Positions 2,275-59,476 of a DNA stretch of 64,000 nt are shown one piece after another. Every line of letters starts with the position of its first letter. Position 1 is the first letter of the stretch. The notes beneath the pieces were generated by a model. The model made no database searches. It was given only the letters and a program-made list of their open reading frames with translations, and was not told the origin of the DNA. The position numbers and the translations under genes were made by a program. Source of the DNA: an uncultured Verrucomicrobiota bacterium (lineage in GTDB: Bacteria; Verrucomicrobiota; Kiritimatiellia; CAYTQP01; CAYXEW01); the NCBI GenBank assembly GCA_964464115.1, contig CAYXEW010000001.1, positions 8,740 through 72,739 of the forward strand, written 5' to 3'.

Positions 2275-2867
2275 CGCTCAACCTCTTTCATTGTCACATT
2301 GAGCGGAACCGTTTAGAACAGCTCACGGTGAATATCAACATCTTTCTGAACGCAAGTTGCTGTGACGGCCCGTGAACCCACTGCTTGCAGCCTTCGCTGC
2401 GGCACCGCAGGCATTGTCGCCACTTGTAGCGGTGGCACCGCTCTTGGAAGGCGAAGCCCCGCTATGCTACTCTTCCATTTTAGATGAATAGCTCAGCAGG
2501 AGCTTCGCCCTCCAATAATGAGTTCCGCAGCCTGCATTATTCACTATGAAGAGCAATGAGTACTAAATATTAGCTCTTTGTACTATTTTGTGGAAAGCGT
2601 GTACTATCTCTATAACATCAGCGAATAGCACTGAGTATGCCCAGCCATGTATACCTCATGATTCATCCTATATCCGGCATTCAACATGCAGCAAACGGCG
2701 TAAGTTCTTATGAATAAGGAGTTAGTTGATTGTATCATTCACCTGTTGGCGAGAGAATAGAGACAGGAACGGCCGAAGGAAATCGTGATCCGCTCTCGTC
2801 GCCCGCTATCGTCTACCGAACAGAGGAAGAGTCGGTGGACGCGAACGGCGACGCGAAAGGTTGACGA

Positions 2868-3311
2868 GTGGGAAAGCGCAAACCATGTTCCCCTCTTCCG
2901 CCAGGAGAGGGCCGGGAATCACAGAATCCGACGGATTCGCCAACAACAGCGTTGAACAGGAAGAGAAATAAGATGCCAATCATAGGGATATTCACGGTCA
3001 TCGGGATGATCTTTGTCACGGTCTTCTTCACCGGCGTGAGGTTCTGGATCAAGCGGCACGGTCGAGGCATACTTCTGCTCTACGCCAGCACCGTCGCGGC
3101 GGTCTGGTGGGCCGGGCACTACTGCAACCAACTCCCGATGGATGCCCGGGGTGATCTGCTTTGGCACAGGAGATACACTCTAACGATTATGATCATCGGG
3201 CCACTGGCCATTCTCCTTTCAGCCATAATTGGCTACGCAGTCAGAATGAAGAAATACTTCCAGTCCGGGGGAGCAACCGAAGATAAGAAGTCCCAACAAC
3301 CGGCTGCATGA
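2868..3311 (+). CDS. hypothetical small integral membrane protein (about 3 predicted TM helices); the true start may be the internal Met at about 2973
   Basis: 147-codon ORF with hydrophobic stretches (IIGIFTVIGMIFVTVFF, LLLYASTVAAVWWAG, IMIIGPLAILLSAIIGY). It is flanked by long AT-rich spacers, and I recognise no family. Confidence 0.35.
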   Translation: MGKRKPCSPLPPGEGRESQNPTDSPTTALNRKRNKMPIIGIFTVIGMIFVTVFFTGVRFWIKRHGRGILLLYASTVAAVWWAGHYCNQLPMDARGDLLWHRRYTLTIMIIGPLAILLSAIIGYAVRMKKYFQSGGATEDKKSQQPAA

Positions 3312-3318
3312 CGACATT

Positions 3319-3338
3319 GTGTTCCGCGCGCGGAACAC
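3319..3338. promoter_or_regulatory. perfect 20-bp palindrome GTGTTCCGCGCGCGGAACAC, followed directly by the 10-bp palindrome CATGCGCATG (3339-3348)
   Basis: Read directly from the sequence, 8 nt after the stop codon of the 2868-3311 ORF. No U-tract follows, so it is either a non-canonical terminator hairpin or a protein operator. Confidence 0.5.
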
Positions 3339-3727
3339 CATGCGCATGAGCCGAAGCGTTGGGTGAAAGAAAGCTTGCTGCATTTTGAACCACAAGGGTT
3401 TGCTGATTTTGCCGCATCTACTGCGTTACAAGGGCTTTGGCATAGTTACTATAGCCAATAGCCCTGAAGTCTTGCAGCTACAGCAAACTTAGCAACTGCC
3501 GAATGTAGGTTTAGTTACTGCTTCAATGGACCTTTCCATTAGCCGTCACTATTTTTCATCTTCCACAAAATTCTACGAGGAACCTAAATAGTGCAGCTAA
3601 AAATCGAATATGACTTGCGGTGTAACATTAAATGACCCTGACCGGCTGCGACTGGTTATGGAAAATGACTTTAATTAAGTGCCTTATTATGATAGTATAA
3701 AGATAGAGAGAGAGTAGAGGTGCTGAA

Positions 3728-3955
3728 ATGCATGCGATAACGACTAGTCATATATTCCATCCGTCTACGTGGTGGCGTGATTCGGTTGAGGGTGTTCGGC
3801 GTCTGGCTCACAACAGGGACCTGATGCTGACGATGGGGGCATTATTGCTGATTATTGTGTTGGCAGCCGTGATTATGATGCTGGCCCAAAGCGTTATGTC
3901 CAGTGATCCTACTCGGATTATTCCGCCCTATGATTACATCCACTGGCGGGTATGA
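3728..3955 (+). CDS. hypothetical small membrane protein
   Basis: 75-codon ORF with a single strong hydrophobic segment (LMLTMGALLLIIVLAAVIMMLA). Support is weak because it sits inside a 850-bp AT-rich spacer. Confidence 0.2.
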   Translation: MHAITTSHIFHPSTWWRDSVEGVRRLAHNRDLMLTMGALLLIIVLAAVIMMLAQSVMSSDPTRIIPPYDYIHWRV

Positions 3956-4166
3956 AGTCGGATGTTTGGCCCTAGAGGACACGGGGTTTTTGTGTTTGCG
4001 GTAGGGTACGCGTCGCGGGCTGGAGAATAGGCGGTTTCTTATAACCGTTTTAGGCGGGGATTGATGTGACTCCTTAACTTATGAAAACCACCTCTAACTC
4101 TTCCTTGATTTCATGCGGCAGATATAGGCTTAATGATTCGCTGTATGCTGAAACAGGTATTATATT

Positions 4167-12973: not shown

Positions 12974-13064
12974 ATCGCTCAGACGCGGAGTTGACAGGGT
13001 AGGCATTCAGCGTTTGGCTACTGTTGATTCCAGCCTGTATTATTCATGAGTTCAAAATGCAGGG

Positions 13065-17177: not shown

Positions 17178-18494
17178 ATGAAAAGCCCTACAGGAGAATA
17201 CATCATGAAATATCCGGAACTTTCAGAAAAAACAGTATTGGATCAGTACAGTGCGGCTCAAGATATTTACGGCGAACTGAACATCGATACCGAGGTGGCC
17301 ATTCAAACAGCTCTCGAGGCTCCCATTTCGCTGCACTGCTGGCAGGCGGACGATGTCACGGGTCTGGAGGGTATTTGTGAGGAAACCGCTGGCGGCGGTA
17401 TTATGGCAACTGGCAACTATCCGGGCAAGGCCCGCAACGGTGAGGAGATGCGGCAGGATTTTAACGAGGTCCTTTCACTGCTGCCGGGAACTCACAAGCT
17501 CAATATACACGCATCGTATGCTGAAAAAGGCGGCGATAAAGTCGATCGAGACGCCTATGAGCCCAAACACTTCACCCAGTGGATAGAATGGGCCAAAGAG
17601 CACAAACTGGGGCTGGACTTTAACACCACCAATTACGCTCACCCCAAAGCAAATGACGGAATGACCCTTTCACACCCCGACAGTGCCATTCGCGACTTCT
17701 GGGTGCAACATGGCATAGCCTGCCGTTCCATTGCCGAACATATGGGGAAAGAGCTGAATAACCCTTGTGTCCTTAATCATTGGCTCCCCGACGGGATGAA
17801 AGATGATCCGGCTGACCGCTGGTCGCCGCGTCAACGCCTCCTTGAATCGCTTGACCGCATACTGTCAAAAGAGCACGGAATTGACACAACGTGGTGCAAT
17901 GATGCCGTTGAAAGCAAGCTGTTTGGTATCGGGAGCGAGGCGTATGTGGTGGGGTCTTTTGAATTTTACTGTGGCTACGCCCTGAGCCGGAAAATCAAGC
18001 TGTGCCTGGATATGGGGCATTTCCATCCGACGGAGACTATTCATGATAAAATATCCTCACTGCTGTTGTTCCTCGATTCACTGCTCATCCATGTGAGCCG
18101 TCCGATCCGTTGGGATAGTGATCATGTTGTACTATTCAATGATGATGTCAGAGCCGTCTTCCAAGAGTTGATCAGGGGCGGGGCTCTGGACCGCGTAGCT
18201 CTGGCACTGGATTTCTTTGATGCGGGTATTAACCGTATTGCAGCCTATGTAATCGGAACGCGTGCCTCGCGCAAGGCTTTGCTGTATGCGCTGCTTGAGC
18301 CCGTCCAGATGATGCAGGAATTAGAGCGGAATAATCAGAATGGACCCAAACTTGCGGTAATGGAAGAGGCCAAGACACTCCCGTTCCCCTCTGTATGGAA
18401 TATGCTCTGTGTGCGTGCCGGCGTGCCGGCCGGTATGGGATGGCTGAATGAAATTGAGTCATACGAAAACAAAATCCTGTCTAAAAGGGTATAG
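17178..18494 (+). CDS. rhaA: L-rhamnose isomerase
   Basis: LHCWQADDVTGLE matches RhaA LSMHCWQGDDVSGFE. It is about 430 aa and resembles RhaA along its full length. There is no rhaB or rhaD in the window. Confidence 0.8.
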   Translation: MKSPTGEYIMKYPELSEKTVLDQYSAAQDIYGELNIDTEVAIQTALEAPISLHCWQADDVTGLEGICEETAGGGIMATGNYPGKARNGEEMRQDFNEVLSLLPGTHKLNIHASYAEKGGDKVDRDAYEPKHFTQWIEWAKEHKLGLDFNTTNYAHPKANDGMTLSHPDSAIRDFWVQHGIACRSIAEHMGKELNNPCVLNHWLPDGMKDDPADRWSPRQRLLESLDRILSKEHGIDTTWCNDAVESKLFGIGSEAYVVGSFEFYCGYALSRKIKLCLDMGHFHPTETIHDKISSLLLFLDSLLIHVSRPIRWDSDHVVLFNDDVRAVFQELIRGGALDRVALALDFFDAGINRIAAYVIGTRASRKALLYALLEPVQMMQELERNNQNGPKLAVMEEAKTLPFPSVWNMLCVRAGVPAGMGWLNEIESYENKILSKRV

Positions 18495-18502
18495 CCTGTA
18501 TG

Positions 18503-18553
18503 ATTCAATACATACTATTCGTTATGGCGGTTTTTATGAAGTATGAAGGATAG
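18503..18553 (+). repeat. copy A of a duplicated element of about 50 bp (the second copy is at 21252-21302)
   Basis: ATTCAATA-N11-TTATGGCG(G/T)TTTTTATGAAGTATG(A/C)AGG(A/T)TAG. About 39 of 51 positions are identical between the copies. Both contain a 9-codon ORF (MAVFMKYEG and MAFFMKYAG). Confidence 0.6.
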
Positions 18554-18646
18554 TTCTCTTCCTGAAAATCGTACGAAAGAGCGGCTGATAAAGGTCAGAC
18601 CGCTCTTTTTATTTGCCCGCCTTTAGGGAAAGACTATACTGATGCC

Positions 18647-20419
18647 ATGAGTTGGAAAAAAGAAAAACCGGTCTATGTGCTGGATGACACGCTCATTAAC
18701 AAGATCGCCGCCGGCGAAATTGTGGATCGTCCGGCATCGGTTGTGAAAGAGCTGATAGAAAATGCATTGGACGCTGGAGCCGATGATATCATTGTAAAAC
18801 TGGTTGACGGGGGATGCACATTAATAACCATCAGTGACAATGGTTCAGGGATGTCCCGGGATAATGCACTGCTGAGCATTCAACGCCATGCGACAAGCAA
18901 GATCAAGACGGCTGAAGATTTGCATAGCATACTGACAATGGGCTTCCGTGGGGAGGCCCTCGCAGCTGTTTCCAGCGTGTCACGCTTTCAACTGGTAACG
19001 CGTTGCGAATCGGAGGCAACCGGTGTTGACATCAGTATTCACGGAGGCAAAATACAGGAGGTCAATGAGGTCGGAAGGGATCGCGGAACGACTGTTACGG
19101 TTGGCCATCTATTCTATAATGTCCCGGCCCGTAAGAAATTTCTGAGAGCGGAACGAACTGAACTCAATCATGCCAAGCGAGTGTTTCTGCAGTATGCACT
19201 GGCCTATTGGCATGTACGTTTTCAGTTTATTGTTGATGAGCGGACTGTTTACAGCCTGCCCGCAGAAAAAGAACTACTCCACCGGTGCGAGGCATTGATG
19301 GGTAAAGAATTTACACGTGATATGAAGTCGGTGAAATGGAGGGGTGGGGGCATACGGGTAAATGGACTGGCCGGCACCGATCAGCGGCATCTTTCCGATC
19401 GATCTGATCAGTATTATTTCATTAATAGCCGACCGGTTGTCGCCCCGATATTGTACATAGCCATCAACGAAGCCTACCAGCAGATAGTGCCGAAGGGACG
19501 TCATCCGGCCCTGGTATTATTTATCGAGCTGCCGCCGGAGCTTATCGATGTAAATGTTCACCCCGCCAAAAAAGAAGTACGCTTCAAACGGCCTATTGAA
19601 ATGAGGGAAGCCGTGAAGACGGCGCTGCTACAGGCGCTTGGACAGTCCGGCGCGCGTTCAGGCGTAGCAGGACAGTCTGGTGGTATGCCGTTTTCGCCTA
19701 GAAAACCGGCAATACGAATGCCCGATATTCCGATCCTTCCTCCCTTTACATATCCTGGCAGTCAACTGGATTTGAGCCTGACGACGAAGAAGAATGAAAA
19801 GGAGCTCGACCGGGAATCAGAGCAGGGTTCTGTTGGAACCGCCTCGCCATGGTCATGGTGCAGGATCATCGGCCAGGCCGGTGGCACCTTTGTGCTGTTG
19901 GAAACAGAAGAAGGTATTGTGGTTATGGATCCGCGGGCGGCACATGAACGCGTTCTGTACGAAAAAATGAAAACAATGATGGAAGCGGGCATCAAAGAAG
20001 AACAGGGCCTGCTGATACCGGAGACCGTTGAGCTCGACTCAAATGCAGCGGCGCGGGTAAGTGAACACCTTGAAAAATTACAGCAGATGGGTTTTGGTAT
20101 TGATGAATTTGGAATAAATGCCTTTATCGTGGACCGTATTCCAGCCTGTCTTGATGACGTAAAAGCAGGCCCTATTATCGAGGATATTGCTCACGGATTA
20201 GAGCAGGGGACGGGCCGTGGCGAAGTGATTGAAGACCAATTGCTTAAATGGGTTAGCCAGTCTGCCGTCAGACATGAGGAATCGCTGACTATCAGAGAAA
20301 TCGAGCAGCTCGTCAATGATCTTGCCAGATGCGATATGCCCTATACGAGCCCGCGGGGAAAATCCTGTATTATCTTTATGGGCTACAACGAATTAAACCG
20401 CAAATTCGGCAGGGCGTGA
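18647..20419 (+). CDS. mutL: DNA mismatch repair protein MutL
   Basis: The N-terminal GHKL ATPase shows AAGEIVDRPASVVKELIENALDAGA. The protein is 590 aa and has the MutL C-terminal dimerisation region. Confidence 0.9.
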   Translation: MSWKKEKPVYVLDDTLINKIAAGEIVDRPASVVKELIENALDAGADDIIVKLVDGGCTLITISDNGSGMSRDNALLSIQRHATSKIKTAEDLHSILTMGFRGEALAAVSSVSRFQLVTRCESEATGVDISIHGGKIQEVNEVGRDRGTTVTVGHLFYNVPARKKFLRAERTELNHAKRVFLQYALAYWHVRFQFIVDERTVYSLPAEKELLHRCEALMGKEFTRDMKSVKWRGGGIRVNGLAGTDQRHLSDRSDQYYFINSRPVVAPILYIAINEAYQQIVPKGRHPALVLFIELPPELIDVNVHPAKKEVRFKRPIEMREAVKTALLQALGQSGARSGVAGQSGGMPFSPRKPAIRMPDIPILPPFTYPGSQLDLSLTTKKNEKELDRESEQGSVGTASPWSWCRIIGQAGGTFVLLETEEGIVVMDPRAAHERVLYEKMKTMMEAGIKEEQGLLIPETVELDSNAAARVSEHLEKLQQMGFGIDEFGINAFIVDRIPACLDDVKAGPIIEDIAHGLEQGTGRGEVIEDQLLKWVSQSAVRHEESLTIREIEQLVNDLARCDMPYTSPRGKSCIIFMGYNELNRKFGRA

Positions 20420-20428
20420 AAGTTTATT

Positions 20429-20505
20429 TGGCGTACCCAGCAGGAGTCGAACCTGCAACCTCCTGATCCGTAGTCAGGTGCTCTATCCAATTGAGCTATG
20501 GGTAC
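20429..20505 (-). tRNA. tRNA-Arg (anticodon ACG)
   Basis: The reverse complement GTACCCATAGCTCAATTGGATAGAGCACCTGACTACGGATCAGGAGGTTGCAGGTTCGACTCCTGCTGGGTACGCCA folds as a cloverleaf. The anticodon loop is CUACGGA and the CCA end is encoded. Confidence 0.9.
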
Positions 20506-20617
20506 ACAGAAAGTGAAGCGGGAATATAGTTAAGGGTGTAAACAATATCAAGAGATTTCCTTTACAAATCGCCACGGGATGTAATTATACAGGCATAGAC
20601 ATTTGGTGAAACCTAAT

Positions 20618-20975
20618 GGGGGCGACTGGCTTCGACGTGTAGGTTGAAGCATTTGTTGCGTGTCGAGGATATCGGTGGGCCTCGTAAATCATCCGGTAAA
20701 AACAATAAAAGCCAACCAAGAATTGGCCCTCGCAGCGTAACATAAGTCTGCGACGTCTCTACGTTGACGCCTGCTAGGCGATAGAGGCGACGACAGCAGG
20801 CTGGCTCCAAAGCCGGGCAGCCGGGCCGAGGAGTAAGATCTATTTCGTGGCCGCTGGTCCGATGATCAGTCTGTTCGTCGACAGTTCATCGGGCGAGATT
20901 AAATGACGGAATACACACGTAGATGCATATGTGACTCTTATGCGGACGGGGGTTCAATTCCCCCCGCCTCCACCA
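20618..20975 (+). ncRNA. ssrA: tmRNA (ssrA)
   Basis: The 5' end GGGGGCGACUGGCUUCGACG pairs with the 3' end CGCCUCCACCA to form a tRNA-Ala-like acceptor stem carrying the G3-U70 identity pair. A T-arm (GGGGGUUCAAUUCCCCC) and an internal tag ORF (...GCC AAC CAA GAA TTG GCC CTC GCA GCG TAA, peptide ...ANQELALAA) are present. Confidence 0.9.
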
Positions 20976-21002
20976 TTTGAAAAAAACAAACTGATCCTGT
21001 TG

Positions 21003-21036
21003 CCGATTCCTTAACGCGGGGTCGGTTTTTATCTTT
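21003..21036 (+). terminator. putative terminator after ssrA (a weak stem followed by TTTTTATCTTTT)
   Basis: The CCGA...TCGG stem is short, but a T-rich tract lies 28 nt after the tmRNA 3' end. Confidence 0.3.
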
Positions 21037-21251
21037 TGATTTATTAGCCTGTATTATGCACGCATTCAAAATATTGTAGCTGCGAGACGCCAGAGGTGCT
21101 GCTGTAATTTTCTACCGCAAGTCTCTGGCAACGAAGCAGATGCAGCATTTTCAACGCGCCCTCTGGGTAAAAAACGCCATTGACTCTTGTATTTAATTCC
21201 GTTATCGACTTCAAATTCAACTTTTACTCTCACTTATCATTATTAATTGCT

Positions 21252-21302
21252 ATTCAATATGTACCATTTCTTATGGCGTTTTTTATGAAGTATGCAGGTT
21301 AG
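21252..21302 (+). repeat. copy B of the duplicated element of about 50 bp (see 18503-18553)
   Basis: It lies inside the AT-rich spacer of the ssrA-adjacent insertion, about 350 bp upstream of the 21649 ORF. Confidence 0.6.
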
Positions 21303-21648
21303 ACTGATCTATTCATAAAAATGGATGAGAATGATTGTACCTCTTGGGTTTGGGATGGATATGGATTTTTGATCGTGAATAATTCAGGTTAGCGACTTAT
21401 GCTGTATAGAGCGTTTTGCAACATGCTCCGGATTCACTCCCGCTTCGGAAAATCTCATTCCCTTCCTGGCAATGTGAGTGAGACACCAAACGGAGAAAGT
21501 GCGAAGGGTTGGAACAAAGAGGGGGTGCCATCAGAAGGACTGCACTGTTGACAGCGCGGGGCGTCTTGCGGTAGAAACCAAGTTATTGGAGCATAGCTTT
21601 ATCCACGAGTGCAGGAAGCGAAAGTGTTACCCTTTTTAGACAAACTCT

Positions 21649-23145
21649 TTGTCATTATCAGATAGGAGAAACAAGGTGCGAGATTATCAGACAGAAGAAG
21701 CGGGAGCAAGTACAGCAAGGCTGGAAACCTTAATTAATGCGTTTTTAAGCAGGTGCAATAAAAGCGAAGTAAAGCTGCGTGCAGATTTAACGATACGAAA
21801 AGAACCAGGATTTACAAGAGCTTCAAGCGGCGCAAAGGTGTGGGAAATCAATCCTGGTGTACTTGATAGAGATGCTTTCCTGAATGAAATTGCTGACGAT
21901 GTTGGGCTTCATGCAGAAACACTTCGCTCAGAAGACTGGGCACCATTAAGGGATCAGATTTGGTTTGACGCAAAACTTGAATTAGCTGTGCGAGATGTGC
22001 CGTGGATACAAGAAACTGATATCCGTATAACCGATTTATATGATCCAAAAGTGCGCTTACTCGTAGGGTTGGGAGATGTCAGGGGCTCAGCTTCATACCA
22101 ATCGTTCTACGTTAATTTTTATCGAAATAGAGAGCTGTCGGAAGTCCAGGCTATTTTTAACACCGCGGGTTATCGATTGATACCCATACCTGTTCAAATG
22201 GAGGAAAAAGATCTTTCTAAAATGGGGCGAGTGTTGAACACAATTTTGGGTGATAACCGTATTATACGGATGGCTTTTACAAAACCAACTAAAGAAGCAG
22301 CAGTCAAAACCGGATTATTTAATGTGATCGATCCTGATACTTTAGATACGGGTGTAGTCAATACTGCGGCTATTGAGAGGGAAGGTTCAGAACGGCATTT
22401 TGTAAGGCGAACTACAGATGGTCTTGGAACTATTGCGAAGGCAAAGGAGAGTCTTGCCAAAACAGGGCGTACGCTTGGAAACAGTATTACGGGTATAATA
22501 GGTTTGCGTGGATTTGGTTCTGCAGTTTTAGGCAAACTTTTGACCGATTTAGAGGCGCCCAACGAAGTTCGTATAGCTGTTAGAGATGCCAGTTATCAAC
22601 ATGCAGTGGAAGTAATAGATTGGATTAAAAAGGCCTATGAGAAAAAAACCGGTAAACCAACACAAACGATCATTCGCATTCTAAAATATTCGGAGTTTGA
22701 TTTTGAACACGAATCACATCCTCTGAAACAAGTCGATGTTTTGTTTGATTGCACAAAAGTCGGCATGAATGATGATCACTATTCTCTGCGTTATTTAGGA
22801 TTCATCACTCCCACTATGATTGTATTCCATGCTGCTTATAGGGATAAAGATAAACAACCGCGTGTGCCGCCTATATTATGCAAGGCCAGAGCGTTTGGAG
22901 CCGTGGTCCATAATGGTATAGCTGATTGGCTGGGGCATCAATATATGCAGGTAACGGAAGATTTGAAACGGGCTTCGGGATTGATGCCGGATATGCCGGA
23001 GTGGAATGATGATAAGTGGGTAACTATTCGCAACCAGCTTGAAAACGTTGCTTTCAAGTGGGCCAATTTACAGGGATTAAAAGATGCTATGGATCTTTTG
23101 GGTGAGTCAGGTGTTGAAGGTCCTAAAGCAGACGGGCATGAATGA
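21649..23145 (+). CDS. hypothetical protein: an N-terminal region of about 270 aa with no family I recognise, fused to a shikimate/quinate-dehydrogenase-like NAD(P)-binding domain. Composition is foreign.
   Basis: The 498-codon ORF is AT-rich (about 40 % GC in the first 100 nt against about 50 % in the neighbouring mutL) and uses A/T-ending codons. A GTG start at 21676, 8 nt after AGGAG, is an alternative start. The C-terminal half aligns by eye with AroE-family motifs: GIIGLRGFGSAVLGKLL...RIAVRDAS (Rossmann loop and NRT-like strand), DVLFDCTKVGM (INATSVGM-like) and HNGIADWLGHQYMQ (NGLGMLxxQA-like). Confidence 0.6.
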   Translation: MSLSDRRNKVRDYQTEEAGASTARLETLINAFLSRCNKSEVKLRADLTIRKEPGFTRASSGAKVWEINPGVLDRDAFLNEIADDVGLHAETLRSEDWAPLRDQIWFDAKLELAVRDVPWIQETDIRITDLYDPKVRLLVGLGDVRGSASYQSFYVNFYRNRELSEVQAIFNTAGYRLIPIPVQMEEKDLSKMGRVLNTILGDNRIIRMAFTKPTKEAAVKTGLFNVIDPDTLDTGVVNTAAIEREGSERHFVRRTTDGLGTIAKAKESLAKTGRTLGNSITGIIGLRGFGSAVLGKLLTDLEAPNEVRIAVRDASYQHAVEVIDWIKKAYEKKTGKPTQTIIRILKYSEFDFEHESHPLKQVDVLFDCTKVGMNDDHYSLRYLGFITPTMIVFHAAYRDKDKQPRVPPILCKARAFGAVVHNGIADWLGHQYMQVTEDLKRASGLMPDMPEWNDDKWVTIRNQLENVAFKWANLQGLKDAMDLLGESGVEGPKADGHE

Positions 23146-23258
23146 GTTGTAGTAGCTACGATTTGGATCGTCCTGATGGGCCGGATTGTCAGTCTACTTC
23201 TAACGGCCCACCTTCCTCATGGAGCTGACATACTTCACCTTGCCATTATAGGATTTTA

Positions 23259-24125
23259 CTACAGCAACTTCGCCAGTAGTGCATGATCATCCTTTCCCAC
23301 GCTGTACTTTTCTGCTGGTACAACTTCCATTCCGTTTTCCCAGGTCGAGAAACGATAGAGGGTGGCAAAAGTGAATTCGGGAGCTTCTTTCCCCTGTCCT
23401 CCGACGACTTCGGCTCCGCGCCGGACGTTGTCCATCATCCAGGCCGGCAGGCGCAGGTGATAGGGGTTTCGCGCCACTTCACCTTTATGTAAAGACAGAG
23501 CGGTTAGCAGGGTGCCCACGTTATCTTCCGACAGCTCTACCATCATATTAGGCTGTTTCATGGGCCGCCAGAATTCTGTCTGTACAAGGTGTGTGGAAAA
23601 GTCGTTTTCCATGTCTGCCAGAGCGTCCATCACCAACTGGTGCACACCTTCGTGAGTTCGATTCCAGTCTTCAGCATGCGGAAAAAACAGTATGCTTGGA
23701 TGGATCTGTATAAGCAGCTGTTTGATGAGCTGGACAGCATCGAACCACGGGGCCGGTGTCTCCGATCGCGCCAACGGTGTTATATTGTCGAGACCTAAGT
23801 CTTGAGGAACAACCAGTTCAAACCCGAGAAAGCGGCATCCTTTTTTCACTTCGTCGAGTCGTCGCTCCCGCTGGTCTTTCCGGCTGCCCAGCGTGACGGC
23901 AACATTAATGACTCGGGCATGTATCTCTTTTTGAAATCTCAGCGGGAGTCCTCCGACAATGCATTCATCATCGGGATGCGGCGAAAACAGTAAAACAGGA
24001 CCTGCCGCCGGCGGTGGGGCACCGGTCTGAAGATTCCGTTTCCATTGTACATCAGCCACTATGCTGCGGCCCTCACGGAGAGCGGATGAAAACTGTTGGC
24101 AATAATCTAAAAACGATTTATTCAT
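23259..24125 (-). CDS. PIG-L/LmbE family deacetylase
   Basis: The hallmark SPHPDDE lies near the N-terminus. The protein is 288 aa and its composition matches the host genome. Confidence 0.75.
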   Translation of the reverse strand: MNKSFLDYCQQFSSALREGRSIVADVQWKRNLQTGAPPPAAGPVLLFSPHPDDECIVGGLPLRFQKEIHARVINVAVTLGSRKDQRERRLDEVKKGCRFLGFELVVPQDLGLDNITPLARSETPAPWFDAVQLIKQLLIQIHPSILFFPHAEDWNRTHEGVHQLVMDALADMENDFSTHLVQTEFWRPMKQPNMMVELSEDNVGTLLTALSLHKGEVARNPYHLRLPAWMMDNVRRGAEVVGGQGKEAPEFTFATLYRFSTWENGMEVVPAEKYSVGKDDHALLAKLL

Positions 24126-24133
24126 AATGCAGG

Positions 24134-25012
24134 TTAAGCCCTCGGGTGAAACTTCTGATGAATGGACTTCAAGCGGGCGGCGTCGACGTGGGTGTAAATC
24201 TGAGTGGTGGCGATATCGGCGTGACCGAGCATTTCCTGGATAACGCGAAGCGGTGCCCCGTTGGCCAGCAGATGGGTGGCGAAGGAGTGCCGCAGGGTAT
24301 GCGGTGTTACATTTTTACTAATTCCGGCTTTCAGCGCGTACGCTTTAATCAGCTTCCAGAGGCCTTTACGTGAAAACCCGGTTCCGCGGCAGGTGAGGAA
24401 AACAACATCCGTTTCTGCTTGAGCGTTTCGATCGTGGTTACAGTATTGCTGTATTGCCGACAGAGCGGAGGCATTAATGGGAATAATGCGTTCTTTACGG
24501 CCTTTGCCCATACATTTGATATAGCGATCATCAAAACGTATGTCTGAACGCTTCAGGAAGGCCAGCTCTGAGACGCGCATTCCACTACCGTAAAAGGTCT
24601 CCAGAATGGCCCTGTCCCGCAACCCGTTTCGCTTTTCAATGTCCGGTGTCTGCAGGAGCCTATCCACTTCTTTGGCCGTAAGCGTATCGGGCAGGATTTT
24701 CCAGAGTTTGGGGGACTCCATATTGTCTGCGATGTTCTGACTAATCAGGGATTCCTGCTGCAGGTAGCGAAAAAACATTTTGATGGCCACCAGACGACGG
24801 GAGAGCGAGGTCGTTTCCAGGCCCCTCTTCTTTTCCTCCATGAGGTAATCCAGGATATGGTGCCGTGTGACATCAGATGGTGTATAGATGCTGCGCTTTT
24901 GCAGAAAATGAAAAAAGGTCTTTAGATCCGAATTATAGGCGCTACTCGTGTTCGCACTCAGCCCCCGTTCCACATTCAGGTAATCGAGAAACTGGTCCAG
25001 CAATACCTGCAT
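24134..25012 (-). CDS. xerD: tyrosine site-specific recombinase XerD (chromosome dimer resolution)
   Basis: 292 aa. LDYLNVERGLSANTSSAYNSDL at the N-terminus, the R..HxxR..Y catalytic set, and a C-terminus (TTQIYTHV...HQKFHPRA) matching the XerD ending ...HHPRA. Confidence 0.8.
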   Translation of the reverse strand: MQVLLDQFLDYLNVERGLSANTSSAYNSDLKTFFHFLQKRSIYTPSDVTRHHILDYLMEEKKRGLETTSLSRRLVAIKMFFRYLQQESLISQNIADNMESPKLWKILPDTLTAKEVDRLLQTPDIEKRNGLRDRAILETFYGSGMRVSELAFLKRSDIRFDDRYIKCMGKGRKERIIPINASALSAIQQYCNHDRNAQAETDVVFLTCRGTGFSRKGLWKLIKAYALKAGISKNVTPHTLRHSFATHLLANGAPLRVIQEMLGHADIATTQIYTHVDAARLKSIHQKFHPRA

Positions 25013-25015
25013 GCG

Positions 25016-25909
25016 TTATACACTCAAAGGGTTGCCGGTCAGCAATTCATAGGCCTCGATGTATTTCCGGCTCGTCTTTTCTATAACTTCTGCAGGCAGG
25101 GCGGGGCAGGGCGGAGTTTTATTCCAGTCCAGCGCCTCCAGATAATCTCTCACAAATTGTTTGTCGAAGGATACAGGAGAGGTGCCTGGCTGATACTGTT
25201 CTCTGGGCCAAAACCGTGAACTGTCCGGTGTAAAAATTTCATCAATTAAAACCAGTTGATCATTCAGCATACCGAATTCAAACTTGGTGTCAGCCAGGAT
25301 AATACCCTTCTCAAGTGCCCGCTTGGCAGCTCTCACATACAGATCGAGGCTGATTTGGCGCAGCAGGACTCCAGTTTCCTGTCCGACCGTCTCACACATA
25401 ACTTCAAAGGAGATATTTTCATCGTGACCTGAATCGGCTTTTGATGATGGCGTAAAGATGGCCTCATCGAGTGGGTCCGCCATCCGGTAGCCTTCGCGGA
25501 GCGGTAGACCGCAGACGGAACCGCAGCGCTGGTATTCTTTCCATCCGGAACCAATCAAATAGCCCCGCACAATACACTCAACGGGCAGGGGGGAAACCTT
25601 TTTGACCAGCATCGAACGCCCTTTAAGCTGATCGGCATACGGCTGAAGCGATTCAGGAAAATCCGCTACCGAAACTGACACCATATGATGGGGGACAATA
25701 TCCTTCATTTGTTTAAACCACCACGCTGACAACTGTGTAAGCACCGCTCCTTTATAGGGTATGGGCTGATCCAGTACACAGTCAAATGCTGAAATCCTGT
25801 CCGTGGCTACAATGAGCAATTCATGGCCCAGATCATATACTTCCCGCACTTTTCCCGATTTGAATTTCGGGATTCCCGGAAGGTTTTCTATAGAAGGGTT
25901 TGGTGTCAT
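25016..25909 (-). CDS. purC: phosphoribosylaminoimidazole-succinocarboxamide synthase (SAICAR synthetase)
   Basis: GKVREVYDLGHELLIVATDRISAFD is the SAICAR synthetase signature. The protein is about 297 aa. Confidence 0.88.
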   Translation of the reverse strand: MTPNPSIENLPGIPKFKSGKVREVYDLGHELLIVATDRISAFDCVLDQPIPYKGAVLTQLSAWWFKQMKDIVPHHMVSVSVADFPESLQPYADQLKGRSMLVKKVSPLPVECIVRGYLIGSGWKEYQRCGSVCGLPLREGYRMADPLDEAIFTPSSKADSGHDENISFEVMCETVGQETGVLLRQISLDLYVRAAKRALEKGIILADTKFEFGMLNDQLVLIDEIFTPDSSRFWPREQYQPGTSPVSFDKQFVRDYLEALDWNKTPPCPALPAEVIEKTSRKYIEAYELLTGNPLSV

Positions 25910-25934
25910 GATGTACTCCTTGTCATGTATCTGA

Positions 25935-26264
25935 TCAGCGGCACTCAGCCGGCAGCTTTTTTCGCGCCGAAGGCAAACCTATTGCAAGATTGCAGTCAAA
26001 GCCGAGTTCTGTAATAGCGCGCTCAATGTTTTTGTCCGCCACCTTGACGCGGTTGTAGTCAACGGTGACCACACCGTTTGAAATATCGGTATCGACAGAT
26101 CGAACCTCCTGAATGCTTCGCAATTTTTTCACAATGAGTTGCGCACATGCGTCACTCTTCATGCCGGGCACATCAAATGATTTTACACGGTCGTCTTCCC
26201 TGTTTAGAAAACAGCCATTTAACAACAGTATCACGGTTAACATAAAAATAGTTGAATGCTTCAT
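25935..26264 (-). CDS. small lipoprotein with a degenerate heavy-metal-associated (HMA-like) fold
   Basis: Lipobox LLNGC. GMKSDACAQ occupies the position of the GMxCxxC motif but has only one Cys. The protein is about 109 aa. Confidence 0.4.
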   Translation of the reverse strand: MKHSTIFMLTVILLLNGCFLNREDDRVKSFDVPGMKSDACAQLIVKKLRSIQEVRSVDTDISNGVVTVDYNRVKVADKNIERAITELGFDCNLAIGLPSARKKLPAECR

Positions 26265-26405
26265 AATCTATATGGTTCCTGTTATGTTTTTATCCTCTAA
26301 GCACGTATAGCTCAGATACGGTGGCTCTGCATTCCTATTAATAACAGGCTCTTAATTTTTTTCCACATTTTATTTGAACAAGATTGGGATCTAAGCATAT
26401 TGTAT

Positions 26406-27983
26406 TCACTGAAGAGGCGAGTGTACGTTTTTCCCATAGGGTTCCTCACCCTGACCTCCTTGGCGTGCACCGCCTCTTCTTTTTTCACCCTTCATCTCAT
26501 CCATTATCCGAATCGCATCAGAAGCTTTCTTAGATGCCGCGGGGTACAAATCTCCAAATTGCTGAATAAACTCACGGTAGATACTACGCGCCGTATCATA
26601 GTCCCCGTTTTTTAAATAGCACAGGCCCAGGTTCAATCTGTACTGGGGGGGGGCATCACTGTTGGCATACAGTTCTTCATAGATTTCAATGGCTTCGGGT
26701 ATATGGTTGCGCTGTAAGTAGGCATTGGCCAGTCTCAATTTTGGATTCCAGTGCGATTTCAGCTCCCCGCTGATTGCTTCATACAACGGGATCGCTTTAC
26801 TCCATTCTCCCTGCATGTAATAGATGTCGGCTAAACCCATACCTGTCTCCAGCTCCGGGCGCGTTTTTCGTTCTTTTATAAAAAGGTGATAAAAAGCCAT
26901 CGTGCACAATACGCCTGCCAGGACTCCGCCGGTTATTAACACGCTGCCGGCAACGGCCGTCAGCCGTCGATTGAATAGTTGCTTCTTTTCTGAAAAGCGA
27001 TGAGCATAGAGATCGAGTGAAAGAGCCGTGAGGGATAGGGCCTGCGCCGGATATTGCAACTGATTCGATTGCATGGCAAACCTAACTGTATGACTCAAGT
27101 CTTCTGTCCGATACCGGTATTGCCAGGCTCTCGGGTTGCGGTTTAAATGATAAAGCATCCATTCTACAGCCAGAATAATGCTGTCGGGCAGTTCGGTACA
27201 AAGCAATTCCTGAAGATCGCAATAACCATTCACAGCGTAGCTGAGTAAATGTTCGCGCAGCACGTCGCTATCGGTTGCGGTATAAAGCAAATTGAAAAGC
27301 AGTATATGTTGAATGGGCTGGTGCTGAAGGTCCCGTTGAGTCATGAACTCATCAATGCAGCGTGTGATGATTGTTACCAGTTCCCTCAGTTCAAGTTTAA
27401 TTTCCGCCACGTTATCTGTGGCGCCGCCTTGCCTCTCGAGTATCCGCTGAAGGGCTTCCAGTTCGAGCAGCAGCATCACGCACAGGTCAACATCGACAGA
27501 TTCACTTGTGCTGTCTGTTTCGAGCCAGCCCTTTTCACCGGAGCGCCAGCAGAACTGGCAGGTGTGTTCGAAATCGTAACAGCGCATCAGCGCCTCAGCG
27601 TATGAAGTCCATCGTTCCAGCGCAGCCCGTTCGTCTGCCTCTGCAAAATAGCCCCCCTCAATGAGTATTTCGCAACCGGCGGCGAGGAGGGGATAGGGCG
27701 CGGAAAAATGGCGCAGGGGTTCCAACGGATCCGAATGATGTTGCAGGATAAACGTGTCCATCAATTGCCGGTAATCGGCGCTTTCGCAGGACACCGTTCG
27801 CAGCGCGCTCATAAAACTGAACGGATTGCCTTCCAGTCGCACTTCGCCGTCTGTCCTGTCAAAGGAGGCTGCCGAATGCAGCCATCGTTCCTGAGCGGCA
27901 TGATACACAGCTCGGTAGGACGCGGGAAGCAATTCGCTGTAATCAGCAACGGCGCCGTTAAGATGGTTTACAGTATTATCCAC
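26406..27983 (-). CDS. TPR-repeat protein with a TM segment
   Basis: The C-terminal third has tandem TPR-like repeats (AIPLYEAI...LANAYLQRNHIPEAIEIYEEL...LNLGLCYLKNGDYDTARSIYREF), preceded by the TM helix VAGSVLITGGVLAGVLCTMAFY. Confidence 0.6.
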   Translation of the reverse strand: MDNTVNHLNGAVADYSELLPASYRAVYHAAQERWLHSAASFDRTDGEVRLEGNPFSFMSALRTVSCESADYRQLMDTFILQHHSDPLEPLRHFSAPYPLLAAGCEILIEGGYFAEADERAALERWTSYAEALMRCYDFEHTCQFCWRSGEKGWLETDSTSESVDVDLCVMLLLELEALQRILERQGGATDNVAEIKLELRELVTIITRCIDEFMTQRDLQHQPIQHILLFNLLYTATDSDVLREHLLSYAVNGYCDLQELLCTELPDSIILAVEWMLYHLNRNPRAWQYRYRTEDLSHTVRFAMQSNQLQYPAQALSLTALSLDLYAHRFSEKKQLFNRRLTAVAGSVLITGGVLAGVLCTMAFYHLFIKERKTRPELETGMGLADIYYMQGEWSKAIPLYEAISGELKSHWNPKLRLANAYLQRNHIPEAIEIYEELYANSDAPPQYRLNLGLCYLKNGDYDTARSIYREFIQQFGDLYPAASKKASDAIRIMDEMKGEKRRGGARQGGQGEEPYGKNVHSPLQ

Positions 27984-47216: not shown

Positions 47217-49563
47217 GAATATAACAGCTCTGCCGACTAACGGGCCTGAAGTGAGCGTCATTCTCGTAAACTATAACGGGAAAAAGTGGCTGGAGAACTG
47301 CCTGAGAAGTCTCCGCCGTACACGAGATGTGTCTTTTGATATTATTCTGATCGACAATGCATCCGTTGACGGAAGTCTCGACTGGCTCCGGGAACACGCG
47401 CCGGACATCCAGGTGCTGTCTCAGGATGTCAATATAGGATTTGGGCGCGCTAATGCGATCGGTGTAAGCGAAGCGCGCGGTTCCTATGTCGCGTTTCTGA
47501 ATACGGATACTGCGGTGGACCCCGATTGGCTGTCGGCACTGCTGCATGGCCTCAGAGAAGATGAATCCATCGGCGCCGTGACATCGTTGATGACCTCGAT
47601 GGATCATCCTGAGATGATCAATGCTGCGGGCGGGGGAATGACGTGGACCGGTTACAGTTACAGGCGTTACTGCAACTGGTTTATTGACGATTATGCTGCA
47701 CTGCATGGTGACAGTTGCGCTGATGTATTCTTTGCTTCCGGAGCTGCCATGCTGATGAAAAAGGAGACGTTTCTGGAAGTGGGCGGCTTTGATGACGCCA
47801 TGTTCATGTATCATGAGGATGTCGATCTTGGATGGCGCTTATGGCTGGCCGGTGTTCGGGTCGCCGTCTGTCCTGCATCACGCGTACGGCATGCCGACAC
47901 CGGTTTCGAACAGGCTGCTGAAGCGATGTCTTTTTCCGAGGTGATGGGTGCGCGCCACAATGTCAGAACGCTCCTGAAGTGCTTTGAATGGCGGCAGGCC
48001 TTGATAGCCCTCTTTTATATAGCCATGATGTATGCCTATAAAAAACGCTTTGGCTTATTGTTTAAAGTCGCGTTATGGAATCTATATAAGGGGCCTTCAA
48101 CTATGGCAGAACGCCGGCGCATTCAAAAGGGTCGCGTTCGATGCGACCGGGAACTGCTGGACCGCTCTAGAATTGATCCATATGCGGCATTTCCGAGTCC
48201 GCTCTACCGCTTTAAGCCGGATGTGCCGCCCGAAGGACTCCTGATGAGCCACCACCTCTACCCGGGCGAAGATTCAGCTCTGGGGCGACTCGGGGAAGGG
48301 TGGTCAGCAAAGGTTGAGACAGATGGAAAGCCCTGTCGTATGATGGCGGATGCAGCCCACTGCGTCATGCTGGCCCGGCCCGGTCAGAAGGGGGCACTAC
48401 ATATCCATTTCAAGGGACTCAATGTGCACGGTACCACAACGCTGTATCTACACTGCAATGAACAATTTCTGAAAACAGATATACGCGATGGCCAATGGCA
48501 CGAGATGCAGATAAATGTGAATGTGCCGGAATCGGGACTGCTACAGATAAGAATGGGTCTTCAGGAACAGCATACAGTTCGATCGATTCACCGCACGCAT
48601 CTGAGCGTGAAATGCATCGTTTTTGAGCCCGATGAATCGGTTGAGGTAAAAACCCGGCCCGTTACTACCGCCGTTGTCATACCGCATATGAACAAGGGTG
48701 GTCCAATAGCTGAAGTAATCCGAGCCCTCGAACGCCAGACCGTGCTGCCCACTGAAGTGATTATTGTCGATGACGGTTCGCGTGTCCAACCTTTGGAAGA
48801 GCTGAAAGAAGTGGTTTCCAAACCTTGGAAGATACCCGTGCAACTCATTTGCCAGGCACATGCCGGACCCTCTGTCGCCCGGAACAGAGGGGTCGACGCT
48901 GCCAGCTCTGACATCGTGCTTTTTATTGGTGATGACATTTGTCCTGGGGAATGCTGGCTCGAACATCATCTGCGCACCCACGAGGAGTTGGGGCCGGGCC
49001 ATGCTGTTTGCGGTTATACGGTGTGGGACGATGACCGTATGCGCGTATCACCGCTTTTGAACTATGTGAATGAACACGGCGAGCAGTTTGGTTATGCGTA
49101 TTTCACGCAGCGCGGTGCTTTGCCTTTTACCTGCTTTTACACCAGCAATATATCGATAGCCCGCGATCTGCTGGAAATCTATCGCTTTGATCCGTGGTTT
49201 ACCGATGCCTGCTGGGAAGACTGTGAACTGGGCTATCGGCTGTGTTGTGCAGGAGTGCGCATCATCTACGAAGAGCGCGCCTCTGCGCGTCACTATCATC
49301 CCATGAATGCGACCGCTTTTTACCGCCGCCAGCAAAAAGCGGGGCGCCTCTATGCGACCATGGTGCGCGAGCGCTGGCCGCGCTTACAGGCCCATTTTTA
49401 TAATCCGTCTGAGCGCATGTTAGAGCGCTTGAAACGGTTTGAATGGTTGATTGAGGTCGGTGTCAAAACAATCTGTCTTGTGGATCGTTTTAATATTCCG
49501 CTGCCAAAGGCCGTATACCGTTATTCACTGGCGCTGGTCTATTGCCTCAGTATGCGGGAGTGA
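47200..49563 (+). CDS. tandem double-GT2 glycosyltransferase
   Basis: Two separate GT2 cores: VSVILVNYNGKKWL...ILIDNASVDGS...NTD at the N-terminus, and AVVIPHMNKGGPI...IIVDDGS...GDD at about residue 490. It is 787 aa. Confidence 0.8.
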   Translation: MNRECENITALPTNGPEVSVILVNYNGKKWLENCLRSLRRTRDVSFDIILIDNASVDGSLDWLREHAPDIQVLSQDVNIGFGRANAIGVSEARGSYVAFLNTDTAVDPDWLSALLHGLREDESIGAVTSLMTSMDHPEMINAAGGGMTWTGYSYRRYCNWFIDDYAALHGDSCADVFFASGAAMLMKKETFLEVGGFDDAMFMYHEDVDLGWRLWLAGVRVAVCPASRVRHADTGFEQAAEAMSFSEVMGARHNVRTLLKCFEWRQALIALFYIAMMYAYKKRFGLLFKVALWNLYKGPSTMAERRRIQKGRVRCDRELLDRSRIDPYAAFPSPLYRFKPDVPPEGLLMSHHLYPGEDSALGRLGEGWSAKVETDGKPCRMMADAAHCVMLARPGQKGALHIHFKGLNVHGTTTLYLHCNEQFLKTDIRDGQWHEMQINVNVPESGLLQIRMGLQEQHTVRSIHRTHLSVKCIVFEPDESVEVKTRPVTTAVVIPHMNKGGPIAEVIRALERQTVLPTEVIIVDDGSRVQPLEELKEVVSKPWKIPVQLICQAHAGPSVARNRGVDAASSDIVLFIGDDICPGECWLEHHLRTHEELGPGHAVCGYTVWDDDRMRVSPLLNYVNEHGEQFGYAYFTQRGALPFTCFYTSNISIARDLLEIYRFDPWFTDACWEDCELGYRLCCAGVRIIYEERASARHYHPMNATAFYRRQQKAGRLYATMVRERWPRLQAHFYNPSERMLERLKRFEWLIEVGVKTICLVDRFNIPLPKAVYRYSLALVYCLSMRE

Positions 49564-59075: not shown

Positions 59076-59153
59076 TGGTTTGGCTCTTCCGTGAAGAACC
59101 TTGTTTGACATCCAGAATTAGGAATGACACCGTTTTCTGAAACCTTTTTGTAA

Positions 59154-59181
59154 GGCTGGAACGGTCGCAGACCTTCCAGCC
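59154..59181 (+). terminator. stem-loop GGCUGGAA-N12-UUCCAGCC after pheA, a possible terminator or processing hairpin with no U-tract
   Basis: Read directly from the sequence. There is an 8-bp perfect stem. Confidence 0.35.
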
Positions 59182-59476
59182 GCATACGGCGCGATGGCCT
59201 TCGGCCATTAGCGCCCTACGAAGGAGCCATCTCCACTTCGCTTCGGCTGTTGCCATGGATTTGCGGCAGGAAACTACAGCGGCACCCTGGCGCCCATGCA
59301 AAGCGTGGCAAGTTCGCAGCCCTGTCCCACTTATGCGGGATACAGCATTTTGAACACGTGAAGAATACAGGCTAAAACCATTGCAGAGACTGTGTTTTTT
59401 GTGTATAGGTGGTCACACTTTTTGGTTTATGTTATGAATTGGTTAGAAATAGTTAAACATCGATGAGAGGGCGGTT

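Follow-up and report, generated by a model that had tools for sequence, protein, structure and literature searches.

Two intergenic segments of the 64-kb window (the whole stretch of 64,000 nucleotides that was analysed), copy A after rhaA and copy B downstream of the tmRNA gene, have about an even chance of being diverged copies of one intergenic repeat, about 72 nt long and specific to the lineage, that serves as the "tail" module of a mosaic family built from heads, bodies, and tails. Our verdict is that the element is an ordinary small dispersed repeat of the MITE/ERIC type, putatively mobile. A first-pass annotation of this DNA had listed a small mobile repeat among several options, and this is the option that fits best, as the tail is one of three modules that the spacer holding copy B shares with four other intergenic regions. 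Duplication would have spread the modules, or else non-autonomous transposition or recombination in the manner of MITE, ERIC, or BOX elements, and the AU-rich imperfect inverted repeat of the tail, once transcribed from the + strand, would form a stem-loop. In the 3'-UTR of rhaA, the copy A hairpin may at most modulate 3'-end stability or processing, and the ATG...TAG mini-ORF carried by the repeat would be a by-product of the sequence that is not translated.

A repeat search of the window aligned the two copies over 51 nt with 43 of 51 bases identical (84%), and in a window-versus-window blastn comparison the pair was the top-ranked non-self match (E = 8.6e-8), bearing out both the sequence and the coordinates of the duplicated element of about 50 bp that had been described earlier. 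A search for the 24-nt core TTATGGCGKTTTTTATGAAGTATG that tolerated three mismatches returned these two sites of the window and no others, and none of 100 shuffled controls gave any match; no third full copy of the 72-nt repeat is present in the 64-kb window. A stretch previously set apart as 11 variable nucleotides still matches at 6 of 11 positions, so the element forms one continuous block. Nor does the repeat end at the TAG codon, as had been proposed, since similarity continues for about 20 nt beyond it with a single 4-nt indel, giving approximately 77% identity over 71 columns. Identity within the core is 27/30 over the mini-ORF (30 nt that include the 5' arm of the hairpin) and 16/21 over the 21 nt preceding its ATG, and the conserved core contains reiterated TATG/TATGAAG motifs. 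The 72-nt module has its inverted repeat in the interior rather than at the termini, and its two ends do not form an inverted pair. Coordinates of all features are collected in Table 1.

Table 1. Coordinates of the repeat copies, related modules, predicted structures, and neighbouring features in the window
Feature	Position	Strand	Remarks
Copy A of repeat	ungapped core 18503-18553, gapped to 18573	+	between rhaA stop codon and rhaA terminator
Copy B of repeat	ungapped core 21252-21302, gapped to 21326	+	start 277 nt past tmRNA 3' end
Mini-ORF, copy A (MAVFMKYEG, stop)	18524-18553	+	ATG GCG GTT TTT ATG AAG TAT GAA GGA TAG
Mini-ORF, copy B (MAFFMKYAG, stop)	21273-21302	+	ATG GCG TTT TTT ATG AAG TAT GCA GGT TAG
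Copy A stem-loop (predicted)	18518-18577	+	MFE -17.3 kcal/mol, z -2.5
Copy B stem-loop (predicted)	21261-21340	+	MFE -20.2 kcal/mol, z -2.4
Head module, full (TAGCCTGTATTATGCACGCATTCAAAATATTGTAGC)	21045-21080	+	10 nt past tmRNA terminator
Head, inverted copy (TAACCTGAATTATTCACGATCAAAAATCCATA)	21360-21391	-	
Further head copies	13031(+), 59374(-), 2528(+)		
Head fragment (TAGCCTGTATGATTCA)	18492-18507	+	overlaps rhaA stop codon, adjoins copy A
Body module, hairpin-forming, ~110 nt	21075-21185	+	other copies 3482-3372(-), 59300-59233(-)
Partial inverted copies of tail 3' portions	2469-2596	-	either side of head 2528
rhaA stop codon	18492-18494		
Intrinsic terminator, strong (GC-rich stem + U-tract; predicted)	18577-18613	+	MFE structure; 121-nt z -5.2; adjoins copy A 3' side
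tmRNA gene (ssrA)	20618-20975		3' end opens the "islet spacer" of the first-pass annotation, from which the gene was absent

The evidence for a family comes from an unbiased all-versus-all comparison that covered all 31 intergenic regions (8.5 kb) at a threshold of E < 0.01, accompanied by length-matched coding controls. Six inter-region matches were obtained among the intergenic regions, compared to 0-2 (mean 0.3) in the controls, and all six were confined to five regions, with the spacer downstream of tmRNA taking part in five of them. This spacer has its head in common with the regions at 12974-13064 and 59076-59476, its body with those at 3312-4166 and 59076-59476, and its tail, which is the ~72-nt repeat, with 18495-18646. 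The three regions sharing the 33-nt head or the 110-nt hairpin body with it lie between core genes. Within the spacer itself, the full head and the inverted head enclose a 347-nt block in which copy B and the body module lie. Another head is flanked by partial, inverted tail copies that represent 3' portions of that module, with 23 of 27 bases matching copy B (2469-2495 against 21303-21329) and 20 of 24 matching copy A (2573-2596 against 18558-18581), at an alignment score of 17.5 where the 99th percentile of the background is 13. In total, the 64 kb contain two full and two partial tails, six heads, and three bodies.

Several smaller observations concern how such modules might move. Four of the six heads start directly after TA, which is suggestive only, and the reverse complement of the tail resembles the head weakly (11-12 of 16 bases; nhmmer E 7.5). 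No direct repeat indicating a target-site duplication was seen when the flanks of either copy were read, and no transposase was found among the 22 window proteins scanned. A candidate third copy, inverted and located at the right-hand border of ORF498 (23215-23250), was discarded, its score of 9-9.5 lying within the background (mean 8.4, 95th percentile 11).

Counting against a family, only two copies of the tail module lie in the window, just 2.75 kb apart and in direct orientation, and a local duplication would yield the same two-copy, direct-repeat picture. The pair could thus be the relic of a one-off local rearrangement in which a spacer of about 70 nt was doubled as a block of mutL, tRNA-Arg, and tmRNA came to separate rhaA from the region downstream, one possible route being Campbell-type recombination via short homology, the copies having since drifted to 77-84% identity as functionless and immobile sequence. 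The arrangement suits such an event: the copies number exactly two, point the same way at a spacing of 2,749 nt, and flank those three genes, and no third full copy was found in the window or in the public collections scanned. The nearest MutL is 50% identical, and in these nearest relatives the mutL loci (L044 and L045) are not syntenic with rhaA or ssrA; as the order that places mutL next to rhaA and tmRNA is missing from them, it is specific to this lineage, which also fits a local event. However, two other modules of the copy B spacer recur in three further, distant intergenic regions, partial inverted tail copies are present at 2469-2596, and a head fragment adjoins copy A. As a single local event leaves this network of modules in both orientations unexplained, a local relic is considered unlikely, and the dispersed-repeat family is preferred.

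The family reading also changes the view of the DNA around copy B. Only ORF498 is compositionally foreign (GC3 34% compared to 51-57%), and mutL, tRNA-Arg, and tmRNA between the two copies have native composition. Because copy B, between the inverted heads at 21045 and 21391, is surrounded by repeats that flank core genes where they recur, the spacer that holds it is probably native DNA by sequence context, rather than imported. The earlier remark that a foreign islet carries a copy of a native element is weakened accordingly: ORF498 is compositionally foreign, but the spacer probably is not. The stretch downstream of ssrA in this uncultured Kiritimatiellia-like lineage would then be a mosaic of native short repeats and not an import. 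Two further readings were examined and rejected. In the first, the copies would be attL and attR on either side of an element inserted at the tmRNA gene; a single instance of the ssrA 3' end is present in the window, the sole nearby recombinase is XerD (360.9 bits, cutoff 329.6), and the enclosed genes are native in composition. In the second, the repeat would travel with ORF498; the sole homologue of this ORF (P0122, 42% identity) lacks a similar upstream sequence.

The two copies are placed quite differently relative to neighbouring genes, and the two downstream genes are unrelated. With the rhaA stop codon on one side and a strong terminator on the other, copy A would belong to the rhaA 3'-UTR and be co-transcribed with rhaA. 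The modelled terminator is positioned to end the rhaA transcript, cutting copy A off from mutL. The first-pass annotation had located copy A 95 bp upstream of mutL; the distance to the mutL ATG (18647) is close to that, at 93 nt. Copy B had been placed about 350 bp ahead of ORF498, which agrees with the 346 nt to a TTG at 21649, but the GTG at 21676, preceded by AGGAGA and 373 nt away, is the more likely start. No terminator was found between copy B and ORF498.

Each copy precedes a + strand gene, which raised the possibility of a protein-binding site at the DNA level, or of a promoter propagated as a mobile unit ahead of mutL and ORF498. Putative mobile promoters have been defined by homologous intergenic segments ahead of unrelated genes (PMC3488235), a signature that the two copies fit, and the reiterated motifs of the conserved core would suit a binding site. 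However, no sigma-70-type -35/-10 pair (at least 9 of 12 matches) was found on either strand within 18503-18573 or 21252-21326, just upstream of them, or adjoining them, in a scan that recovered the canonical promoters of the tRNA-Arg and tmRNA genes. Besides the terminator, a promoter-like site (18613-18640) that is separate from the repeat intervenes between copy A and mutL, and the distances from copy to downstream start codon differ fourfold (93 nt compared to about 350-370 nt). A regulatory site or mobile promoter is therefore very unlikely. Other motifs, checked by eye, were also unmatched: CsrA (GGA in the loop in copy A only), sigma-54, the LexA box, dif, IHF, and integron attC.

Both copies can fold, according to the structure predictions, into an AU-rich stem-loop that beats shuffled sequences on the + strand only, with modest z-scores. 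The predicted main stem of copy A pairs 18527-18541 with 18558-18572, G-U pairs included, and a short outer stem pairs 18518-18522 with 18573-18577, leaving the TAG of the mini-ORF in the apical region. In copy B the predicted main stem pairs 21277-21289 with 21312-21323, and imperfect pairing extends out to GUAC/GUAC; the segment 21255-21346 is an imperfect palindrome at the DNA level too (E 7e-4). Owing to the G-U pairs, the + strand hairpin is predicted to be much stabler than its minus strand counterpart in both copies (minus strand MFE -6.3, z -0.4 for copy A; MFE -12.4, z -1.7 for copy B). Searches with Rfam at the gathering threshold returned tmRNA and two tRNAs in the window and nothing else, and neither copy was matched even at E <= 10.

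These folds raise the alternative that the stem-loop is a functional RNA under selection, one that governs processing or stability in a 3'-UTR or 5'-UTR or that makes up the body of an sRNA (copy A from about 18510 to the terminator at 18613), and that was duplicated because its function was needed at both sites. Strand specificity, the better conservation of the 5' arm region, the location of copy A in a gap that is probably transcribed and then terminated, and two 3'-arm substitutions between the copies that keep or create pairs are all consistent with this. The comparison involves two sequences, however, and their main stems contain no double compensatory change; the consensus fold is weak at -4 kcal/mol, and the extended outer stems were rejected as a sign of selection on structure, given that random flanks equal them in 32-36% of trials. 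Neither copy has a promoter-like site upstream or an Rfam match, copy B has no terminator after it, and the placement of the copies among their neighbour genes differs considerably. We regard selection on the stem-loop as distinctly improbable, and favour a structured but ordinary repeat.

The mini-ORF was read correctly in the first-pass annotation, with ATG and TAG in register in both copies, and it spans the 5' arm and apex of the hairpin. It might be translated as a 9-codon leader peptide that opens the hairpin (attenuation or translational coupling), or as part of a hydrophobic type I toxin-like peptide of 17-40 amino acids on a repeated module. In favour of translation, both frames are open further 5', to an ATG at 18500 in copy A (MIQYILFVMAVFMKYEG, then stop) and to a TTG at 21180 in copy B (40 aa), and the 17 shared codons encode the similar hydrophobic peptides IQYILFVMAVFMKYEG and IQYVPFLMAFFMKYAG. 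The possible start codons are inconsistent, however, giving ORFs of 9 or 17 aa in copy A and 9 or 40 aa in copy B: the ATG at 18500 corresponds to GCT in copy B, whose sole upstream start is the TTG, 93 nt off. No Shine-Dalgarno sequence was found in the 20 nt upstream of either mini-ORF ATG, unlike rhaA and ORF498, which both have AGGAGA. Across the 17 shared in-frame codons the copies differ at eight sites, distributed 3/2/3 over the codon positions, the mini-ORF outlasts eight random substitutions in 29% of simulations, and an ORF of this kind is present in 4% of intergenic 51-mers; the conservation that had been proposed for it is thus within neutral expectation, and similarity runs past its stop codon. 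The 40-aa frame of copy B has no homologue among 1.84 billion proteins.

A leader peptide or attenuator, as suggested earlier, fares no better. Folding of the copies with their downstream sequence, proposed as a check for alternative terminator and antiterminator structures, showed the copy A hairpin and the terminator coexisting in both the MFE and centroid structures with no alternative pairing, copy B has no terminator, and the genes downstream are unrelated. The 9-codon mini-ORF is most likely incidental, neither a gene nor a leader peptide, and its translation is hardly credible. A broader proposal has only a slim chance: heads, bodies, and tails would make up a Kiritimatiellia family of structured, strand-specific RNA modules that has not been described before, with the tail as a translation-sensitive hairpin whose conserved 9-codon ORF over the 5' arm and apex lets ribosome passage, or a hydrophobic micropeptide, control what becomes of the RNA, both downstream of ssrA and at the 3' ends of genes. 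Practical consequences of these results are few, but they avert the annotation of a 9-codon "gene" or "attenuator" upstream of mutL.

The Correia/NEMIS elements of Neisseria are MITEs with terminal inverted repeats, TA duplication, and hairpins cleaved by RNase III. The modules described here are similar in having heads inverted around the 347-nt block at 21045-21391, in the TA preceding four of the six heads, and in adjoining core genes, and by analogy their hairpin RNA may be an RNase substrate (PMC10969869). They differ in that no target-site duplication was found, the inverted heads occur at one locus only, and the 72-nt repeat lacks terminal inverted repeats, is unlike Correia/NEMIS in sequence, and has no transposase partner among the window proteins scanned. 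BOX elements of Streptococcus pneumoniae and BIMEs of E. coli are modular mosaic intergenic repeats that favour the 3' flanks of genes. As in these systems, in a comparison that draws on published work (PMC3184786), short modules with hairpin potential vary in order, number, and orientation across intergenic loci; the sequences are unrelated, any module grammar read from the five loci here would be tentative, and the stems of REP/BIME are GC-rich whereas these are AU-rich.

ERIC/IRU sequences, transcribed intergenic imperfect palindromes of about 127 bp, resemble the repeat in being short, non-coding, palindromic, and predicted to form an RNA hairpin, and copy A, between a stop codon and a terminator, is also in a presumably transcribed intergenic position. 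ERICs at gene 3' ends alter transcript levels via RNase E (PMC10969869), and enterobacterial repeat units can contain fortuitous ORFs (PMC2759123). The present repeat has no sequence similarity to ERIC/IRU, is about 72 rather than 127 nt long, is AU-rich, was seen in two copies only, and comes from another phylum (Kiritimatiellia-like). The type I toxin-antitoxin repeats of E. coli (SIB/Ibs and LDR/Ldr) also combine a repeated intergenic module with a very short hydrophobic ORF, but the repeat here lacks a consistent start codon, a Shine-Dalgarno sequence, an antisense promoter or terminator, a coding signature, and homologues. If abundant genome-wide, the modules would constitute the first small-repeat family described for this group, though the kind is well known in other bacteria, and the head, body, and tail sequences could serve as probes for repeat content and for assembly breaks across a poorly sampled lineage.

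Copies in other genomes, a check that had been proposed with the original observation, were sought in public collections, and only chance matches were obtained. An 18-mer core gave 43 matches in 185,579 GTDB species genomes, all judged to be chance, with flank identities of at most 16/32 bases upstream and 7/14 downstream of the core. In the JGI metagenomes, a 22-base pattern of the repeat had no matches and a hairpin-shaped pattern had five, all chance, and a pattern scan of IMG/VR gave nine, also chance and most of them from one phage gene. On these sequence searches the repeat is lineage-specific, and its host, a Kiritimatiellia-like MAG, lacks close relatives. Look-ups for identical proteins with RhaA (from two start codons), MutL, and the long ORF498 frame had no matches. 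A Logan contig break at 21320 was set aside as a weak sign of a high-copy repeat, as the contigs are only 2-5 kb long and break within ordinary coding DNA too. Two Logan contigs from SRR7048222 are 100% identical to parts of the window and add approximately 0.9 kb.

The duplicated intergenic element described in the first-pass annotation was recovered at 18503-18553 (copy A) and 21252-21302 (copy B), with 43 of 51 nucleotides identical, and in a repeat search no direct-repeat family of the window was larger than this 51-nt pair. The two copies also formed the top non-self match in window-versus-window blastn (E = 8.6e-8), and their 24-nt core occurred exactly twice in the window with three mismatches permitted (0/100 shuffles); no third full copy was found in the 64 kb. 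Gapped alignment and an nhmmer profile extended the similarity about 20 nt beyond the TAG with one 4-nt indel, giving spans of 18503-18573 and 21252-21326 at ~77% identity over 71 columns.

Copy A follows the rhaA stop codon and is itself followed by a strong intrinsic terminator (about 18577-18613), and a separate promoter-like site precedes mutL; this arrangement would place the copy in the rhaA 3'-UTR, insulated from mutL. That site is the sole promoter-like site before mutL, and as it ends 6 nt from the ATG, with no Shine-Dalgarno sequence, mutL mRNA may be leaderless or nearly so. Canonical sigma-70-like promoters stand ahead of tRNA-Arg and the tmRNA gene (TTGATA-17-TATATT and TTTACA-16-AATTAT). 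The tmRNA gene (ssrA), absent from the first-pass annotation of the element, forms the left edge of the spacer holding copy B.

The nine-codon ATG-to-TAG frame noted in each copy (the mini-ORF) reads as described, but its meaning as a gene or leader peptide was not supported. The frame is open upstream in both copies, as MIQYILFVMAVFMKYEG from ATG 18500 in A and as 40 aa from TTG 21180 in B, which might suggest a translated mini-ORF or an attenuator; we regard this as highly improbable. No Shine-Dalgarno sequence precedes either mini-ORF ATG, whereas rhaA and ORF498, the low-GC orphan downstream of copy B, each have one. Possible start codons are not common to the two copies, the 17 shared codons differ at eight sites distributed 3/2/3 over codon positions, similarity persists past the stop codon, and the 40-aa frame had no match in 1.84 billion proteins. 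About 4% of intergenic 51-mers in the window hold an ATG ORF of at least nine codons, and in simulation a frame of this type outlasted eight random substitutions in 29% of cases. From these patterns the mini-ORF is treated as incidental.

In both copies a conserved (G)KTTTTTATGAAG base-pairs with a segment further downstream that is less well conserved (CTTCCTGAAAAT in A, TTCATAAAAAT in B), placing the TAG in the apical region of a predicted stem-loop. Folding energies were -17.3 kcal/mol (z -2.5) for the plus strand and -6.3 (z -0.4) for the minus strand of copy A, and -20.2 kcal/mol (z -2.4) and -12.4 (z -1.7) for copy B, the strand difference being due to G-U pairs. Outer-stem extensions were not better than random flanks and no double compensatory change separates the two main stems, so the structure is considered only plausible. 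An RNA element under selection, or an sRNA, would account for the plus-strand folds, yet given those stems we judge it distinctly unlikely. Copy B was also found as a DNA palindrome (21255-21346). A DNA-binding site or mobile promoter seems to us improbable. A perfect 13-nt inverted repeat (TAAAAAACGCCAT / ATGGCGTTTTTTA; 21168-21180 and 21273-21285; E 0.75 in a small intergenic search) joins the copy B core to a site ~90 nt upstream, with no equivalent partner in copy A; it resembles bidirectional terminator stem halves parted by an AT-rich insert and may be due to chance. An independently assembled Logan contig (SRR7048222_327810) is 100% identical to 21320-26462, and its end falls within the 3' arm of the hairpin in copy B. 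This could reflect a repeat or variation there, although Logan contigs here are 2-5 kb and are interrupted in ordinary coding sequence as well.

When the 31 intergenic regions (8.5 kb) were each compared with all the others, six inter-region matches had E < 0.01, against 0-2 in length-matched coding controls. All six were confined to five regions, and five of the six involved the spacer downstream of ssrA, which holds three shared modules: head, body and tail, the last being copy B. The head (33 nt, consensus TAGCCTGTATTNTTCACGNGTTCAAAATGCTGTA) lies in intergenic DNA beside core genes, often right at gene 3' ends, with TA preceding four of six copies, and has no properly spaced -35/-10 pair; at one locus two heads (21045 and 21391) are inverted around a 347-nt block. 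The three body copies are 62-79% identical and fold as a long hairpin in which three base pairs show compensatory changes between copies (RNAalifold consensus); the body has no Rfam match and may represent either a structured RNA or a palindromic repeat. Partial inverted copies of the 3' part of the tail lie on both sides of head 2528. Beside that head is a 73-nt imperfect palindrome (2444-2515) whose centre resembles the reversed 3' part of copy B. Other palindromes were a GC-rich 28-nt one resembling a bidirectional terminator (3315-3342), just past an ORF ending at 3311, and an imperfect 86-nt one within a long ORF (49286-49369).

Coordinates of genes, signals and shared modules
Feature	Position	Strand	Remark
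RhaA	17205 (or 17178)-18494
Promoter-like site TTGCCC-16-TATACT	18613-18640		ahead of mutL
MutL	18647-20419
tRNA-Arg(ACG)	20429-20505	-	between mutL and the islet
tmRNA gene	20618-20975	+	standard one-piece; tag peptide ANQELALAA
tmRNA terminator	21002-21036
ORF498	21676-23145	+	489 aa from GTG; low-GC orphan
Head	21045-21080	+
Head	13031-13063	+
Head	59374-59340	-
Head	2528-2559	+
Head, inverted copy	21391-21360	-
Head fragment	18492-18507	+	abuts copy A
Body	21075-21185	+	~110 nt
Body	3482-3372	-
Body	59300-59233	-

We give about even weight to copies A and B being a small intergenic repeat of the MITE/ERIC/BOX kind that is lineage-specific, modular and hairpin-forming, with copy A residing in the rhaA 3'-UTR and with the mini-ORF as a fortuitous product of the repeat sequence. 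Core and hairpin-shaped patterns met chance matches only in 185,579 species genomes, JGI metagenomes and IMG/VR, which makes the element appear lineage-specific within the reach of these searches; MutL finds its best matches among Kiritimatiellia/Verrucomicrobiota MAG proteins, none above 50% identity, and relatives' mutL loci are not syntenic with this one. A relic of a one-off local duplication would agree with two full copies in the window, but the partial tail copies at head 2528 leave this rather unlikely. Of the earlier suggestions, a small mobile repeat fits best. Membership of the MITEs proper is not established: neither copy shows a target-site duplication, the 72-nt module lacks its own terminal inverted repeats, and no transposase was detected among 22 window proteins scanned. 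Once transcribed, such repeats in other bacteria undergo RNase III or RNase E processing, affect transcript stability and occasionally supply promoters (PMC10969869, PMC3184786, PMC2229807), and fortuitous ORFs have been described in them (PMC2759123). The observation is real, and its explanation is ordinary, the repeat type being already known from other bacteria.

The idea that a foreign islet carries a native element was weakened. Since the copy B spacer shares modules with other regions, and further heads occupy gaps flanked by core genes (rhomboid / RNase III and PheA / EF-G), copy B would most simply belong to a native mosaic spacer, not imported DNA. A nearby "phage integrase family" gene (24134-25012, minus strand) was ruled out as an island integrase; its 360.9 bits exceed the NCBIfam XerD equivalog cutoff of 329.6, indicating a housekeeping chromosome-dimer resolvase rather than an integrated element. 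The only clearly foreign piece here is ORF498 (GC 42.8%; GC3 34% versus 51-57% in mutL and rhaA), whose start is most likely GTG 21676, preceded by AGGAGA. Neither Pfam nor PADLOC gave a match to it, and residues 198-415 showed only a sub-threshold resemblance of the Rossmann / shikimate-dehydrogenase-like type. Among 5.8 billion proteins it has a single distant homologue (P0122; 714 aa, 42% identity), encoded on a JGI contig beside an IS240-type transposase.
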